DNA of 39,903 bases from a virus (Duplodnaviria > Heunggongvirae > Uroviricota > Caudoviricetes). The stretch lies in the IMG/VR virus record IMGVR_UViG_2654587728_000015, one strand, 5' to 3'. The position numbers were made by a program, and so were the translations under genes. The stretch's first letter is position 1. Each line of letters begins with the position of its first letter. Shown one piece after another: positions 2,826 to 35,254 of the stretch. The notes below the pieces were generated by a model. It searched no databases. It was given only the letters and a program-made list of their open reading frames with translations, and was not told the DNA's origin.

Positions 2826-3074
2826 ATGCGTATTGAAATCTGCATAGCCAAAGAAAAAATGACTAAAATGCCAACCGGTGCTGTGGATGCGTTAAAGGAA
2901 GAATTAACCCGACGCATCAGTAAACGTTATGACGATGTAGAGGTGATCGTAAAAGCCACCAGCAACGATGGCCTTTCTGTTACACGCACCGCAGATAAGG
3001 ATTCTGCAAAAACTTTTGTTCAGGAGACTCTGAAAGATACCTGGGAATCTGCTGACGAGTGGTTTGTTCACTAA
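2826..3074 (+). CDS. dinI: DinI-like DNA-damage-inducible protein
   Basis: 82-aa protein with conserved DinI C-terminal motif ([15 protein letters not shown]); LexA boxes upstream; SD AGAGGGA. Confidence 0.8.
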
Positions 3075-3217
3075 TTAACACGTAAAATCGGTAACGGCTG
3101 GAAATCATTCAATAATCGCACTATCGAAAGTTCGCCAGCCAGCCGCAGCACGTTCTTGCATACGACGTGGCTGCGGCTTCCAACATTAGACAAATAACTC
3201 TTTAAATTGCTTTTAAA

Positions 3218-3781
3218 TTATTTCGTTTGAATGCCAGTAACAGGAAATCGTTTATATAGGGTTGATAGCCCAACGTTATAGATACGTGCAACATAACGCC
3301 GTGATTTCCCTGCCGCTATGAGCGCTCCCATCTGTTGCCACTGCTCGTCGCTAAACTTCGGTCTACGCCCACCAATCCGGCCTTTGGATCTGGCAATAGC
3401 CAAACCAGCTAAAGTTCGCTCGCTATTCAAATCAGATTCATACTGCGCAGCAGAAAGAATATTACGGAAATTATAGCGACCACTTGCTGTTTTCAGGTCT
3501 ACGCCATCTGTAATACTCCGAAAATTAACACCTTTTTCGTGCAGATTTTGAAACATCAATAGCGCATGCAGCACATTTCTCCCTATCCGATCTAACTTCC
3601 AGACAATCAACTCATCTCCACTTTTCATCACCGTAATTAATTCCTTTAACACAGGGCGATTAGCTGTTCTGCCACTGGCATATTCTTCATAAATTCGCTC
3701 ACAGCCAGCTGACTCAAGTGCAAGACGTTGCAACTCTGTATCCTGATGATTTGTTGATACACGAACATACCCGTAAATCAT
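3218..3781 (-). CDS. Serine recombinase, DNA invertase of the Gin/Pin/Hin family
   Basis: 187-aa ORF starting YGYVRVSTNHQDTELQ with catalytic serine, resolvase core and C-terminal HTH (VGLSTLYKRF); position after tail fibre and tfa as in Mu gin / e14 pinE. Confidence 0.9.
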   Translation of the reverse strand: MIYGYVRVSTNHQDTELQRLALESAGCERIYEEYASGRTANRPVLKELITVMKSGDELIVWKLDRIGRNVLHALLMFQNLHEKGVNFRSITDGVDLKTASGRYNFRNILSAAQYESDLNSERTLAGLAIARSKGRIGGRRPKFSDEQWQQMGALIAAGKSRRYVARIYNVGLSTLYKRFPVTGIQTK

Positions 3782-32046: not shown

Positions 32047-32961
32047 CTAGTTAAAGGCATTGATGTATGCCTCTTTGAACTGGGCAGCACGTTTACCCGT
32101 GAAACCCATAGCAAGAAACGCAAAGCCGTCGCGGGTTATTTGGTAGCAAGGAAGTTTGCGACCTGTGCAATCAGTGTAATCACTCACCGAAAAATTGCGG
32201 GCAGTGAATGATGCTGAGCATTCAAGCGTGCGGATCTTTTTCAGTACATCGTCATGACGTTTGGAGAAGAAGTTGGCAACAGCCAGGGATGAAGTAACAG
32301 CCTGACCATCAACGATGGCAATTTCAGGTTGAGTGAGGGTTGGGATCGTAGCCATGATGGCAGCCTCTTTGGTGATTTTTAATAACTCACCACCAAGGCT
32401 TTCCACGACCTTATTGGTGGTGAGACGTACAGGGGTGGAAATACCGGTCACCAAAGAACCCGGCCCAACCGAAGTTGGCCCTGTACGCCCCACCATAATT
32501 TGGGCGTAATGCTGCTCATGACACAAAAAAACCGCAAGAGCGCGGTTGTGCGCTTTGGTGAATTCCGGGTTTCCACGCCCGGCACCCGTTTTATAAGGTG
32601 CCTGAACAGTGTAACGTCCCGGAATGGCAGAATCAATGTGCTGGTGGTCCTTCACACTCAACAAAATCACGCCTGAATTTCCACAAAGGACTAAAGCACT
32701 CATGCGGGTAGTCTTTGCGAAGATAGATAACGCGCTGTGTTTCTGGTTCCCAACGAATAACATGGACATAAAGCCCTCTTCCGTCACGAAACCAGCGGTT
32801 AAGTTCCTGCACAACTCGCCCCCCACAGTCAGGTAAAGTTCTCTGTGGTTACTTACAGCCAGGTGATTTGGTAATCTGCATTCATGCCGTAACAACAAGT
32901 GTTCAGCGACACTGACCACCAGCTGTTGCGACAAACGGTTATTTGCCGTTAAACTGTTCAT
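32047..32961 (-). CDS. Rha/AntA-family phage regulatory domain protein (domain in C-terminal ~100 aa; N-terminal 200 aa unknown; possible internal start at 32355)
   Basis: C-terminal segment ...SSLAVANFFSKRHDDVLKKIRTL...YQITRDGFAFLAMGFTGKRAAQFKEAYINAFN matches Rha-type domain; internal SD AAGAGG plus ATG at ~32355. Confidence 0.55.
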   Translation of the reverse strand: MNSLTANNRLSQQLVVSVAEHLLLRHECRLPNHLAVSNHRELYLTVGGELCRNLTAGFVTEEGFMSMLFVGNQKHSALSIFAKTTRMSALVLCGNSGVILLSVKDHQHIDSAIPGRYTVQAPYKTGAGRGNPEFTKAHNRALAVFLCHEQHYAQIMVGRTGPTSVGPGSLVTGISTPVRLTTNKVVESLGGELLKITKEAAIMATIPTLTQPEIAIVDGQAVTSSLAVANFFSKRHDDVLKKIRTLECSASFTARNFSVSDYTDCTGRKLPCYQITRDGFAFLAMGFTGKRAAQFKEAYINAFN

Positions 32962-33509
32962 GCGTTAGTTTCTCCACAGACACAAAACGCCACGACGCCC
33001 GGAGCTGCACACTCGCGGGCGTCACTCTTTTCTGGAGCGCAGAAGATTTTGTAGACCAGTGCTGCATGTTCCTGGAGCTTCGAAATTGACAGATACAACT
33101 CATCATTAATTGCTGTCTGCTCGTGTGGCTCCACGACCCCATCTTCGATTGCCGAACGAATCTGCTTTGAGTAATTCCCGATCTGTTCGATGACTTCCAG
33201 CAGGCGCTGGTTTATATCGGCGTTCTCTACTTCATCAATTTCAGGAAGCGATACGAACACCCCACCAGCAGACTGTGCGACAGCATCCGCAATGTAGTGA
33301 GTGCCAGCCGCACGCTGTAAAACCATTGCCCATCCCAGCGGGAAAATCTGATCGCCATCTGCACGAAGGCGGTTGAATAAAGCGTTCTCTGTTACATCCA
33401 GCCAGTCAGCAGCTTCAGCGTAACCCCCAGGCAATGCCGCGATAGTTTTTCTGACAGCTTTCACGTACCACTCAGGTTGTTTTTCCACTTTCCAGTGATG
33501 CTTACCCAC
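32958..33509 (-). CDS. Hypothetical protein in the cII-equivalent position (possibly YdaT/CII-analog family)
   Basis: 183-aa ORF immediately after cro, apparent GTG start with strong SD AGGAGGT; family assignment by position only. Confidence 0.5.
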   Translation of the reverse strand: MGKHHWKVEKQPEWYVKAVRKTIAALPGGYAEAADWLDVTENALFNRLRADGDQIFPLGWAMVLQRAAGTHYIADAVAQSAGGVFVSLPEIDEVENADINQRLLEVIEQIGNYSKQIRSAIEDGVVEPHEQTAINDELYLSISKLQEHAALVYKIFCAPEKSDARECAAPGVVAFCVCGETNA

Positions 33510-33762
33510 GGCTTACCTCCTGTTCCTGTGGTTTAAACCCATTCTGGTTTTGGCTAGATTGAAAACGTGCCGGATAAAGAATCTGCATTTCGCTGATTTC
33601 ACCCTTAAAAAAATTGGCCAGACGTTCTGCAAGATCGATAGATGGAATTTGTTCCAGTCTTTCAATACGACTCAGCGTCGCTGGATTGACCTGAACGCCC
33701 GCAGCAACATGCTGCAAAGTAAATCCGTGCGCCTTACGCACATTCCGTAATGGTGATTGCAT
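33502..33762 (-). CDS. cro: Cro-like HTH repressor
   Basis: 86-aa XRE-type HTH protein (FTLQHVAAGVQVNPATLSRIE) divergent from cI; SD GGAGGT. Confidence 0.8.
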   Translation of the reverse strand: MQSPLRNVRKAHGFTLQHVAAGVQVNPATLSRIERLEQIPSIDLAERLANFFKGEISEMQILYPARFQSSQNQNGFKPQEQEVSRG

Positions 33763-33859
33763 ATAACCTCCACATATTGCGTGATGAGCATATTATTTCA
33801 CGCAAATATTTTGCGCAAGTTGATTTGCTTAACGCGCAATAAAGAAATGTAATAAACGC
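33763..33859. promoter_or_regulatory. OR-like operator/promoter region between cro and cI with TTGC-N7-GCAA sites (perfect at ~33825..33839, one-mismatch at ~33777..33791) plus additional TTGCGCAA palindrome
   Basis: Inverted-repeat half-sites read directly; divergent genes on both sides. Confidence 0.6.
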
Positions 33860-34552
33860 ATGAACATAGGAAATCGAGTCAGACAACTTCGCCAGGCGAA
33901 GAACATGAAAATCGCCGATCTCGCTGAAGCAATAGGAGTGGATGCGGCGAATATCTCGCGCCTCGAAACAGGTAAGCAGAAACAATTCACTGAACAAGCC
34001 CTGAGTAATATTGCCAGGAGCTTAGGTGTTGATATTGCTGATCTCTTTACCTCAGACCTCAAAAGTAATACTGTATGTAAAAACAGTATTAGTGAGGATG
34101 TTGCGCAGGTGAAGGATGTATTCCGTATTGAAATGCTGGATGTCAGTGCCAGTGCGGGAAATGGCCTTATCCAGGGCGGTGATGTCATTGATGTGATTCA
34201 TGCCATTGAATACAGAACTGATAATGCTGTATCGATGTTTGGTGGACGACCAGCAAATCACATTAAAGTTATCAACGTTCGTGGGGACAGTATGTGTCCA
34301 ACCATTGAGCCAGGAGATCTCATCTTCGTTGATATCAGTATCAATCAGTTTGATGGGGATGGTATATATGTATTTGGTTTTGATGATAAAATTTACGTCA
34401 AACGACTGCAAATGATACCTGATAAACTGCTGGTAATTTCTGATAATCAGATTTACCGCGAATGGGGAATTACCAGCGAAAACGAACACAGGTTTATGGT
34501 CTTTGGAAAGGTCTTAATCAGTCAGTCACAAACCCTTAAGCGACACAATTAA
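33860..34552 (+). CDS. cI: CI-like prophage repressor (HTH plus LexA-like S24 autopeptidase domain)
   Basis: 230-aa ORF; N-terminal HTH (IADLAEAIGVDAANISRLE), C-terminal GDSM serine and KRL lysine of S24 fold; no obvious SD, consistent with leaderless PRM-type transcript. Confidence 0.85.
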   Translation: MNIGNRVRQLRQAKNMKIADLAEAIGVDAANISRLETGKQKQFTEQALSNIARSLGVDIADLFTSDLKSNTVCKNSISEDVAQVKDVFRIEMLDVSASAGNGLIQGGDVIDVIHAIEYRTDNAVSMFGGRPANHIKVINVRGDSMCPTIEPGDLIFVDISINQFDGDGIYVFGFDDKIYVKRLQMIPDKLLVISDNQIYREWGITSENEHRFMVFGKVLISQSQTLKRHN

Positions 34553-34574
34553 CCCCCTACCTCAACATCAATTA

Positions 34575-34598
34575 GCCACCAGAAGGTGGCTTTTCATT
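34575..34598 (+). terminator. Rho-independent terminator after cI (GCCACC-AGAA-GGTGGC then TTTTCATT)
   Basis: Perfect 6-bp GC stem and T-run immediately 3' of cI stop. Confidence 0.6.
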
Positions 34599-34608
34599 AC
34601 TCACGCTA

Positions 34609-34646
34609 TTGCATATCTCGCAATAAAATACTTGCACGTTACGCAA
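34609..34646. promoter_or_regulatory. OL-like operator pair: two perfect TTGC-N7-GCAA sites (~34609..34623 and ~34632..34646), likely overlapping a rightward PL-type promoter
   Basis: Same half-site architecture as OR sites; located upstream of the rightward early operon. Confidence 0.55.
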
Positions 34647-35071
34647 TTTCATTTTATCTTTCTTTCCAGACCAACAAACAAGGTCCTGACAAAATTTGGT
34701 TGTAACACGGCGTATGGCACATGCGTCGTTAGCGGTCTGGGGACGTTAAAGGGGACAATCCACTCCTTGCTCGGGCAAACAAACCAGGTAGCCGGAATGT
34801 GCAAGTCAATGAGGATGCTGATAAGACGCCTAACCAGCGTGGCGATTCGGTTTGACGCCTGGGAAGAGACCAGGGTGCAACGATGAGGGCATTTATGGAA
34901 CCTCGACAAAGTGTGGTGCCGTAACTGGCTAAGTGCTCTCAGCGTTGTGGTAATCCGCGAAATGGCGCGGCGGTAAGTATGGCGGGGTTACTCTTTCCCC
35001 GTTGAGGACACCGGATTGTCAGGTTGACCATACGCCTGAGTGACAACCACACCACAACAGCCACTGCTTTG

Positions 35072-35206
35072 GCGGTACCAGTTTGTACACTTGCTTCCGG
35101 CTGGTACCGCTCTTTTTACAAAACAGAGAAGAGCATCACCGGACGACTGGCTCATAACCCAATCCATCCGGGCGGCTACCACCGCAGGTGTTCTTCTCTG
35201 TTTTGT
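35072..35206 (+). other. Structured element in untranslated leader: 10-bp hairpin (GCGGTACCAG...CTGGTACCGC) followed by CGCTCTTTTTACAA (boxA-like) and a 15-bp long-range inverted repeat (ACAAAACAGAGAAGA / TCTTCTCTGTTTTGT)
   Basis: Inverted repeats read directly; no convincing ORF between cI terminator and 35255. Confidence 0.4.
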
Positions 35207-35254
35207 GGAGAAACCAACCGACCTTGCAGGGTCGATATGATGAGGAGCAGCAAA

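Follow-up and report, generated by a model that had tools for sequence, protein, structure and literature searches.

The flagged interval, positions 33763-33859 of the window (the whole stretch of 39,903 nucleotides that was analysed), is exactly the 97-bp spacer between the ATG of a cro-like gene (33762, minus strand) and the ATG of a cI repressor gene (33860). The window is otherwise that of an SfII/SfI-type myovirus prophage throughout. The genes and gene signals found at the switch are listed below.

32958-33509, minus strand: CII-like gene, after cro (Phage_CP76, YmfL family, phrog_101).
33502-33762, minus strand: cro-like gene, 86 aa, with an XRE-type HTH (Pfam HTH_3, E = 5.8e-10).
33767-33771, minus strand: Shine-Dalgarno sequence GGAGG of cro, 5 nt before the cro ATG (anti-SD duplex -10.0 kcal/mol).
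33860-34552, plus strand: cI repressor gene, 230 aa, with an N-terminal HTH and an S24 domain (Pfam HTH_3 and Peptidase_S24).
34574-34596, plus strand: terminator-like hairpin (34574-91) followed by a T run, past cI.

The lambdoid layout is evident from these genes, with divergent repressor and cro genes, a short spacer and a cII-type gene downstream of cro. Pfam placed an HTH_3 domain of the Cro/C1 type at residues 7-62 of CI and Peptidase_S24 at residues 104-218, and the CI translation shows Ala99-Gly100, Ser144 (in GDSM) and Lys181 (in VKRL). By its Ala-Gly site and Ser/Lys dyad, CI is a predicted LexA-like, self-cleaving repressor. The terminator past cI is conserved among relatives, and the SfII record annotates a putative rho-independent terminator. 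The CCTCC that is the plus-strand reading of the cro Shine-Dalgarno sequence is also kept in the multi-locus alignment.

Rfam identified two RNA features further along the minus strand, a C4 antisense RNA (32413-32500) and isrK (32525-32601). Both are located inside an apparent 304-aa ORF, the C-terminal part of which corresponds to Ash and Rha. The C4/isrK region, right after cII, is an RNA-controlled antirepressor module of the P1/Gifsy type.

According to the original prediction, the spacer contains a perfect TTGC-N7-GCAA site, a one-mismatch copy of it and a TTGCGCAA palindrome, and the motif is common to OR and OL. All three elements were found in the spacer, and OL was found to carry two exact copies. 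The sites around cI, including a further one inside cro, are as follows.

33727-33741: fourth operator-like site, GTGCGCCTTACGCAC, core TGCG-N5-CGCA, within cro codons 8-12.
33777-33791: one-mismatch copy, TTGCGTGATGAGCAT, OR1-like, over the putative PR -10/start, starting at -83/-84 from the cI ATG.
33811-33818: TTGCGCAA palindrome, inside the invariant block TTGCGCAAGT (33811-33820).
33825-33839: exact TTGC-N7-GCAA, TTGCTTAACGCGCAA, OR3-like, over the putative PRM -35, starting at -35/-36 from the cI ATG.
34609-34623: OL distal operator, exact, TTGCATATCTCGCAA, beyond the cI terminator.
34632-34646: OL proximal operator, exact, TTGCACGTTACGCAA, overlapping the putative PL -35.

The two full OR sites have their centres at -28 and -76 from the cI start and are thus 48 bp apart, the site within cro lies 50 bp from that at 33777-91, and the two OL sites are 23 bp apart from centre to centre.

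Five exact matches to TTGC-N7-GCAA were found in the 39.9 kb, against 1.78 expected, and 4 of 100 shuffled sequences reached five; taken alone, this window-wide excess is weak. Three of the five are located in the non-coding DNA on either side of cI, 210 bp in total (Poisson P = 1.4e-7). An unbiased palindrome search of those 210 bp, in which all repeats of the form 4-mer, Nk and reverse complement (k = 0-12) were enumerated, returned TTGC-N7-GCAA as the sole repeat present in three copies. The fifth exact match (32156-70) lies inside a Rha-type gene, and as the coding DNA around it is near-identical in relatives, the match there is uninformative. One-mismatch copies occur at chance level window-wide (30 versus 28.8 expected), so that it is solely its conservation that makes the copy at 33777-91 credible. 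No Rfam family matched in OR or OL, either in a search with the whole window or in one, at E<=1, with the DNA past OL.

Conservation was examined in 17 related loci, which represent at least seven genera of enterobacteria and have a CI 50-100% identical to that of the window; 14 loci were aligned together, and Salmonella ST64B, a Klebsiella phage and a Cronobacter phage were compared in addition. The genera of this footprint are Escherichia, Shigella, Citrobacter, Pseudescherichia, Klebsiella, Buttiauxella, Trabulsiella, Salmonella and Cronobacter. The loci from species-representative genomes (CI 96-67% identical) came from Shigella, three Citrobacter, Pseudescherichia, Klebsiella, Buttiauxella and Trabulsiella, and the distant phage records were Eeyore, ST64B (CI 84% identical), the Klebsiella phage (71%) and Cronobacter phage ENT47670 (50%).

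TTGC-N7-GCAT lies at -83/-84 and TTGC-N7-GCAA at -35/-36 from the cI ATG in all of these loci (for the Cronobacter phage see below). When the two OR sites were considered together, none of the 16 outer positions was variable, compared with 13 of the 14 central positions (Fisher P = 1.2e-7). At 33777-91 no change is seen in TTGC or GCAT, and all seven central columns vary; in the SfII counterpart four of the seven central bases are changed and the arms are unchanged. At 33825-39 TTGC and CGCAA are invariant and six central columns vary. The inner flanks favour R/Y (TTGCR-N5-YGCAA), although not strictly. Where OL is retained, it has two sites 22-24 bp apart after the cI terminator, starting 53-58 and 76-82 nt past the cI stop; the arms of the distal site are conserved and its centre varies, with TTGC-N7-GCAT in Buttiauxella, Trabulsiella and Eeyore. 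This pattern of substitution strongly supports arms that would be contacted by protein, on either side of a centre that would not.

Two other descriptions of the repeat were tried and rejected. The extended inverted repeat TTGCGTGA-N13-TCACGCAA (33777-33805) was discarded, as SfII and the diverged loci keep neither its extra arm bases nor the CGCAA at 33801-05. The stricter core TGCR-N5-YGCA misfits both OR sites of the window, and the inner R/Y positions are thus preferences only.

For the site at 33727-41, a perfect counterpart, TTGCGATTTTCGCAA (TTGCG-N5-CGCAA), is present in Buttiauxella L013 and phage Eeyore, and a counterpart with one mismatch in four other genera. The third-codon-position G is invariant in both arms, and most neighbouring third positions vary (about P = 0.07). 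The site inside cro as a fourth operator-like site is suggestive only.

Three pairs of putative promoter hexamers were assigned by hand around these sites.

33818-33813 (-35 TTGCGC) and 33795-33790 (-10 TAATAT), minus strand: putative PR, read by hand, 17-bp spacing, 7/12 to consensus.
33825-33853, plus strand: putative PRM, -35 TTGCTT (33825-30), 17 bp, -10 TGTAAT (33848-53), 8/12 to consensus.
34632-34660, plus strand: putative PL, -35 TTGCAC (34632-37), 17 bp, -10 TATCTT (34655-60), 7/12 to consensus.

All three hexamer pairs are conserved in position in all loci while the surrounding bases drift. The PR -10 TAATAT is TAACAT in SfII, ST64B and others, and GCAT(A/G)TTA is conserved in all loci; the PL-type TTGCRC-17-TATNNT is kept in 12 of the 12 loci with OL. 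The putative PL has cI behind it and faces yfdP/yfdQ/yfdR-like genes (in SfII, xis/int). In a sigma-70 consensus scan PR, PRM and PL fell below the threshold, and the lone candidate in the spacer was the plus-strand TCCACA-16-TATTAT (33769-96). This candidate is 9/12 to consensus, and its hexamers are not kept in the diverged loci. The assignment of PR, PRM and PL is thus inferred from conservation and geometry, with a sigma-70 match of 7-8/12.

The site at 33825-39 overlaps the putative PRM -35, and that at 34632-46 overlaps the putative PL -35 in the same register. The lone mismatch T of 33777-91 is the last base of the putative PR -10 hexamer, which would explain why GCAT, and not GCAA, is conserved there. 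The overlap of operator and promoter is one with conserved putative hexamers of weak consensus.

The leader that would follow PL, roughly 590 nt long (34667-35254), folds far better than shuffled sequences (z = -5.0) and holds a terminator-like hairpin at 35072-35117, recognised by eye. No convincing ORF and no Rfam match were found in 34667-35254. The leader is a mosaic, with pieces common to a P1-like Salmonella phage and an Actinobacillus phage, and when it was compared with the STnc1310 region of ST64B, homology was absent except in the last 107 nt.

As three left arms double as putative -35 hexamers (those of PRM, 33825-30, PL, 34632-37, and PR, 33813-18), the TTGC/GCAA repeats might have been kept as promoter -35s (TTGCxx), or as sites of another regulator such as a CII/YmfL-like protein or a host factor, rather than as operators of CI and Cro. 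It also fits this explanation that TTGCGCAAGT is invariant over 10 bp, beyond the needs of a -35, and could not be bound in N7 geometry. However, the right arms GCAA/GCAT, and whole sites away from any -35 (33777-91, 34609-23 and 33727-41), are equally conserved, and the two-fold symmetry with an 11-bp offset of half-sites is what a dimeric HTH protein requires. The motif moreover follows the cI/cro allele. Phage cdtI, which has homologous flanks and a different cI and cro, served as a heteroimmune negative control; it is without a TTGC-N7-GCAA-type site and carries its own palindrome instead. In the Cronobacter phage, whose CI is 50% identical (recognition helix DVGNLSRLE versus DAANISRLE), ATGCG-N5-CGCAT is found at the corresponding places. 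We therefore consider it very unlikely that the repeats serve as -35s or sites of another regulator. These two controls, the second showing partial co-variation, support a motif that tracks the repressor allele and not the neighbourhood, and the absence of the motif from cdtI, with its different cI and cro, fits the proposal that a single repressor specificity would define the immunity group.

No alignment of the CI N-terminal domain with Cro was obtained by BLASTP. In a multiple alignment of the HTH regions, with 21-27% identity, S33, R34, E36 and Q40 are invariant, and the recognition helices align as NPATLSRIE in Cro and DAANISRLE in CI, with S, R and E invariant. A shared recognition-helix motif is likewise found in CI and Cro of phage 434. 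By this alignment, a common operator specificity of CI and Cro is plausible. A PDB sequence search with CI gave remote matches only (XRE, UmuD), among them dh434, a designed 434-type domain (1sq8, E = 2e-4); neither a close solved structure nor a repressor-operator complex from which contacts could be transferred was found in that search.

The TTGCGCAA palindrome needs a caveat as an operator. The block TTGCGCAAGT in which it lies is invariant in 10 of 10 columns in the 14 aligned loci, with variable flanks; ST64B and the Klebsiella phage have it too. This block holds both TTGCGCAA and the putative PR -35 (TTGCGC, minus strand, 33818-33813), and since the palindrome coincides with that hexamer and is unfit for the N7 binding geometry, its role as an operator is putative. 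The DNA adjoining 33777-91 on the side toward 33825-39 is not conserved in the diverged loci, and the TTGCGCAAGT block is invariant. Read as the left part of a 15-mer, 33811-33825 (TTGCGCAAGTTGATT), the block is followed by a degenerate right arm (GATT, and GCTT in most relatives), and the counterpart is a full site, with GCAT, only in Citrobacter L010 (TTGCGCAAGTCGCAT). The centre of 33811-25 is at -42 from the cI ATG, equal to that of lambda OR2, and the 15-mer overlaps 33825-39 by 1 bp. It is the sole candidate for an OR2-type activating position.

Three adjacent OR sites about 23-24 bp apart were thus not found, as the full sites are 48 bp apart and the middle candidate is degenerate; a 23-bp spacing occurs at OL only. 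The best-matching OR site lies on PRM and not on PR, which is the reverse of the lambda affinity order. One reading of these data is that OR consists of three operators 50 and 48 bp apart (33727-41, 33777-91 and 33825-39) together with a non-standard invariant TTGCGCAAGT element, with the strongest site on PRM. We regard this design as possible but rather unlikely. If true, it would imply purely negative autoregulation, a different kind of cooperativity, or a separate factor acting at the palindrome; the different cooperativity would be a higher-order CI assembly, or looping between OR and OL over about 780 bp, in place of contacts between adjacent dimers. It would then also be a widespread alternative design of the switch, present in roughly one in five sequenced E. 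coli, in Salmonella ST64B and in Stx2 phages.

It had further been proposed that the cI ATG is without an upstream Shine-Dalgarno sequence, consistent with a leaderless PRM transcript as in lambda. The first part was borne out by the anti-SD duplex calculated over the 20 nt before the ATG, which is -0.9 kcal/mol for cI versus -10.0 for cro and -11.6 for cII; the median for all 1372 ATGs in the window is -2.7 kcal/mol. The 14 cI homologues scored from +0.9 to -3.0 kcal/mol, with no Shine-Dalgarno sequence before cI in any of them. The ATG is the cI start in all loci, and the PRM -10 TGTAAT is invariant in the 14 loci with both flanks variable, ending 6 nt before the cI ATG (7 nt in L014). From this placement of the -10, the predicted PRM start is the A of the ATG at 33860. 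The same 6-nt distance is found in lambda PRM (TAGATT-taacgt-ATG), the transcript of which begins at the AUG of cI, and leaderless initiation is established. In cdtI, with its heteroimmune cI, a -10-like TTTAAT is also located 6 nt before the ATG. The PaaR2 repressor of the lambdoid prophage CP-933P, which likewise has a 97-bp spacer, was found to be leaderless by 5′ RACE and protein mass (PMC8630535). The ST64B orthologue of cI, STMMW_20241, annotated from Met1, was expressed under every condition (about 65-520 TPM), and its cro neighbour was mostly low (PMC7067206, supplement). Absence of a Shine-Dalgarno sequence and the TGTAAT-N6-ATG geometry together point to a leaderless PRM transcript as in lambda; a leaderless cI mRNA fits all the sequence evidence and is probable.

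Alternatively, the operators may be real and cI leadered, with transcription starting farther upstream, for example from TCCACA-16-TATTAT (33769-96), and with SD-less, S1-dependent translation via A/U-rich sequence. That hexamer pair is the only one in the spacer to have emerged from the consensus scan on the plus strand (9/12), A and U predominate in the 25 nt preceding the ATG, and a missing Shine-Dalgarno sequence is also compatible with SD-independent initiation. Furthermore, any CII-dependent establishment transcript would necessarily be leadered and would still need to be translated. On the other hand, TCCACA and TATTAT are not conserved in the diverged loci, while TGTAAT and its 6-nt distance are invariant, and lambda and cdtI (TTTAAT) share the -10-to-ATG geometry. 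We consider a leadered cI mRNA unlikely on this balance, and a leaderless transcript from PRM the better reading.

A leader would also result if cI started at Met16 (33905), as the PRM transcript would then have a 45-nt leader and cI would be a conventional gene. The mEp460 and Stx2a_1447 records annotate such a 648-nt version, and the anti-SD score there is slightly better (-2.9 kcal/mol). But neither the Klebsiella phage, with ATT as codon 16, nor K. spallanzanii, with CTC, has a start codon there, and codons 1-15 show synonymous or conservative changes and no frame breaks in 11 loci. Alignment with Pfam HTH_3 and with PDB entries begins as early as residues 2-7, and helix 1 would be deleted by a start at Met16. 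Met1 is the annotated start in SfII, PhiR63_1 and ST64B. A start at Met16 is thus scarcely credible; by comparison across the loci, which fixes the start, the predicted cI start is Met1. No in-frame alternative start is present between the upstream stop (33830-32) and 33860.

Taken together, we are fairly confident that the interval is the immunity (lysis/lysogeny) region of a lambdoid prophage of the SfII/mEp460/ST64B type, with operators and a leaderless PRM as proposed. The genes, the motif positions, the conservation pattern, the lack of a Shine-Dalgarno sequence before cI and the hexamer geometry were observed, and from them we infer where proteins would bind, which promoters would be active, where transcription would start and in which direction regulation would act. 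CI and Cro, with very similar recognition helices, most likely both bind as dimers to the 15-bp TTGC-N7-GCAA, preferentially in the form TTGCR-N5-YGCAA, and would make contacts with the outermost 4-5 bp of either half but not with the centre. Binding at 33777-91, over the PR -10/start, would keep PR off in the lysogen, and PR (minus strand, rightward lytic) would otherwise drive the cro-cII-replication genes. Binding at 33825-39, over the PRM -35, would allow CI to repress its own gene and Cro to shut that gene off. Between the back-to-back -35s, 33811-25, with TTGCGCAA as its left arm and its centre at -42 of PRM, is a candidate OR2 that might repress PR and activate PRM, and a further site may be present at 33727-41 within cro. 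Past the cI terminator, the two perfect OL sites (34609-46), 23 bp apart, would cover the leftward early promoter PL. PRM, TTGCTT-17-TGTAAT, would start transcription at the A of the cI ATG and so produce a leaderless maintenance mRNA.

The same module is found in several known phages. The cro-OR-cI-OL DNA of mEp460, PhiR40_1/PhiR47_1, phiSTEC1575-Stx2k, 1720a-02 and Stx2a_1447 is 95-99% identical to the window, WGPS2 was grouped with Stx2a_1447 as a carrier of the same immunity module, and the DNA of Shigella phage SfII is 90% identical. Salmonella ST64B (sb38/sb39), with a CI 84% identical, has the same four sites, TTGCGCAAGT and TGTAAT-N6-ATG. From phages of the mEp460/SfII/ST64B type there is no difference in kind; their records annotate genes only, some with a wrong cI start. 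Among 5426 complete E. coli genomes, 1040 (19%) carry the module. A literature search on the operators of mEp460, SfII and ST64B, the motif and leaderless cI found no study of the operators, promoters or mRNA start of this module.

This immunity type is among the commonest in enterobacteria, being that of SfII (a Shigella serotype-converting phage), Salmonella ST64B and some Stx2-converting phages. With operator, promoters and cI start known, superinfection-immunity groups could be predicted from sequence, truncated cI annotations corrected to the Met1 start, and operator or repressor mutants designed, for example for the induction of Stx2 or SseK3 prophages. The cI mRNA would be another likely example of a leaderless repressor mRNA in lambdoid phages. 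No new mechanism is opened by this immunity module.

Phage lambda shares with the window the divergent cI and cro genes, a CI with an HTH and an S24 autopeptidase domain, palindromic operators at both OR and OL, a cI without a Shine-Dalgarno sequence, and a terminator preceding PL/OL. Its PR and PRM are also back to back, 83 bp apart compared with about 77 bp for the putative pair here. The lambda operators differ in being 17 bp long and of unrelated sequence, compared with the 15-bp TTGC-N7-GCAA. The annotated lambda OR sites have their centres at -19, -42 and -66 relative to the cI start, compared with -28 and -76 for the full sites here; the lambda OR has three adjacent sites 23-24 bp apart, whereas here two full sites 48 bp apart are accompanied by a degenerate middle site and an intragenic one. 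Here OL has two sites and the best OR site is on PRM, Cro is an XRE-type HTH protein and not of the lambda Cro fold, the CII-like protein belongs to the Phage_CP76/YmfL family, and no rex genes are present. N is absent as well, according to PMC3851460.

The PaaR2/YdaS region of CP-933P in E. coli O157:H7 resembles the module in its 97-bp divergent spacer, its operators at OR and at a PL-like promoter, and its leaderless repressor mRNA, determined there by 5′ RACE and predicted here from sequence (PMC8630535). It differs in its operator consensus, with four equally spaced inverted repeats of the GTTTAGTAA type, and in having another repressor; PaaR2 belongs to a toxin-antitoxin operon (PMC8630535).

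With phages 434 and P22 (XRE/434-type HTH) the module shares a remote HTH similarity and, as in 434, invariant outer arms with variable centres. In the 434 operators the outer 4 bp are invariant (ACAA..TTGT), and the variable centres are not contacted. The half-site sequence is different, and the spacing here is odd (7 bp), compared with 6 bp in 434. The module is a lambdoid CI/Cro switch in kind, and its sequence is already known from mEp460, SfII, ST64B and some Stx2 phages.

The repressor gene cI is annotated from Met16, with a length of 648 nt, in the records of phages mEp460 (3006-3653 of the fetched locus) and Stx2a_1447 (2006-2653), whereas SfII, PhiR63_1 and ST64B carry an annotated start at Met1. 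In the window, the two starts correspond to positions 33905 and 33860, respectively, and use of the former would remove helix 1 of the cI HTH. Codon 16 was found to be ATT or CTC in homologues, and codons 1-15 show evolution of the coding type. These data show that cI starts at Met1, giving a gene of 693 nt.

In phage cdtI, a heteroimmune module is located between the same flanks; it has its own palindrome, TTGTACC-N5-GGTACAA, and a -10-like TTTAAT lies 6 nt before the cI ATG (1855-1947 of its locus), which suggests that leaderless cI is common to several immunity types of this phage group. The CI of Cronobacter phage ENT47670 is 50% identical, with the recognition helix altered to DVGNLSRLE; upstream of it (1340-1503 of the locus), ATGCG-N5-CGCAT-type sites are found at the corresponding positions, and TGAATA is located 6 nt before the cI ATG. 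Operator and repressor may have co-varied here at the outermost base pair.

The segment carrying OR and the start of cI (33700-34100) was present at 90% identity or more in 1040 of the 5426 complete E. coli genomes, with up to three copies per genome; strains E2855 and O111:NM 14614 carry it at 100% identity.

Codons 8-12 of cro (33727-33741) also contain an operator-like palindrome, GTGCGCCTTACGCAC, at a distance of 50 bp from the PR operator. In Buttiauxella and phage Eeyore, the matching site forms a perfect TTGCG-N5-CGCAA. The palindrome of the window was also picked out by the terminator scan, as a hairpin on the minus strand. A further exact TTGC-N7-GCAA, the fifth in the window, is TTGCGACCTGTGCAA (32156-32170), located within the Rha-type gene. 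PhiR63_1 has an unchanged copy, and the copies in mEp460, Stx2a_1447 and C. braakii differ at one central position, but this retention says little because the surrounding DNA is nearly identical coding sequence.

Two RNAs were matched at the Rfam gathering level downstream of cII:

32413-32500, minus strand, C4 antisense RNA (84.5 bits)
32525-32601, minus strand, isrK (67.9 bits)

Both lie within a mechanically called 304-aa ORF (32047-32961), which is protein-like in its C-terminal part only (Ash, 117-213; Rha, 223-304); its counterpart in the mEp460 record is a 1152-nt 'Rha' gene. The RNA matches and the restricted protein-like part place a P1/Gifsy-1-type sRNA-controlled antirepressor module directly downstream of cII, the long ORF being probably over-called.

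The putative PL is separated from the first leftward gene by a leader of about 590 nt (34667-35254, plus strand), in which no convincing ORF and no Rfam match, even at E<=1, were found. Its folding energy is -230 kcal/mol, compared with -194 +/- 7 kcal/mol for shuffles (z = -5.0), and it contains two hairpins:

35072-81 / 35101-10, terminator-like hairpin plus TCTTTTT
about 35119-35207, long hairpin

Parts of the leader are also present in Salmonella phage SJ46, which is P1-like, and in a phage of Actinobacillus. The N gene has been reported absent from phages of the type found in the window (PMC3851460). In ST64B, the sRNA STnc1310 occupies the analogous position, but its DNA is non-homologous to the leader described here.
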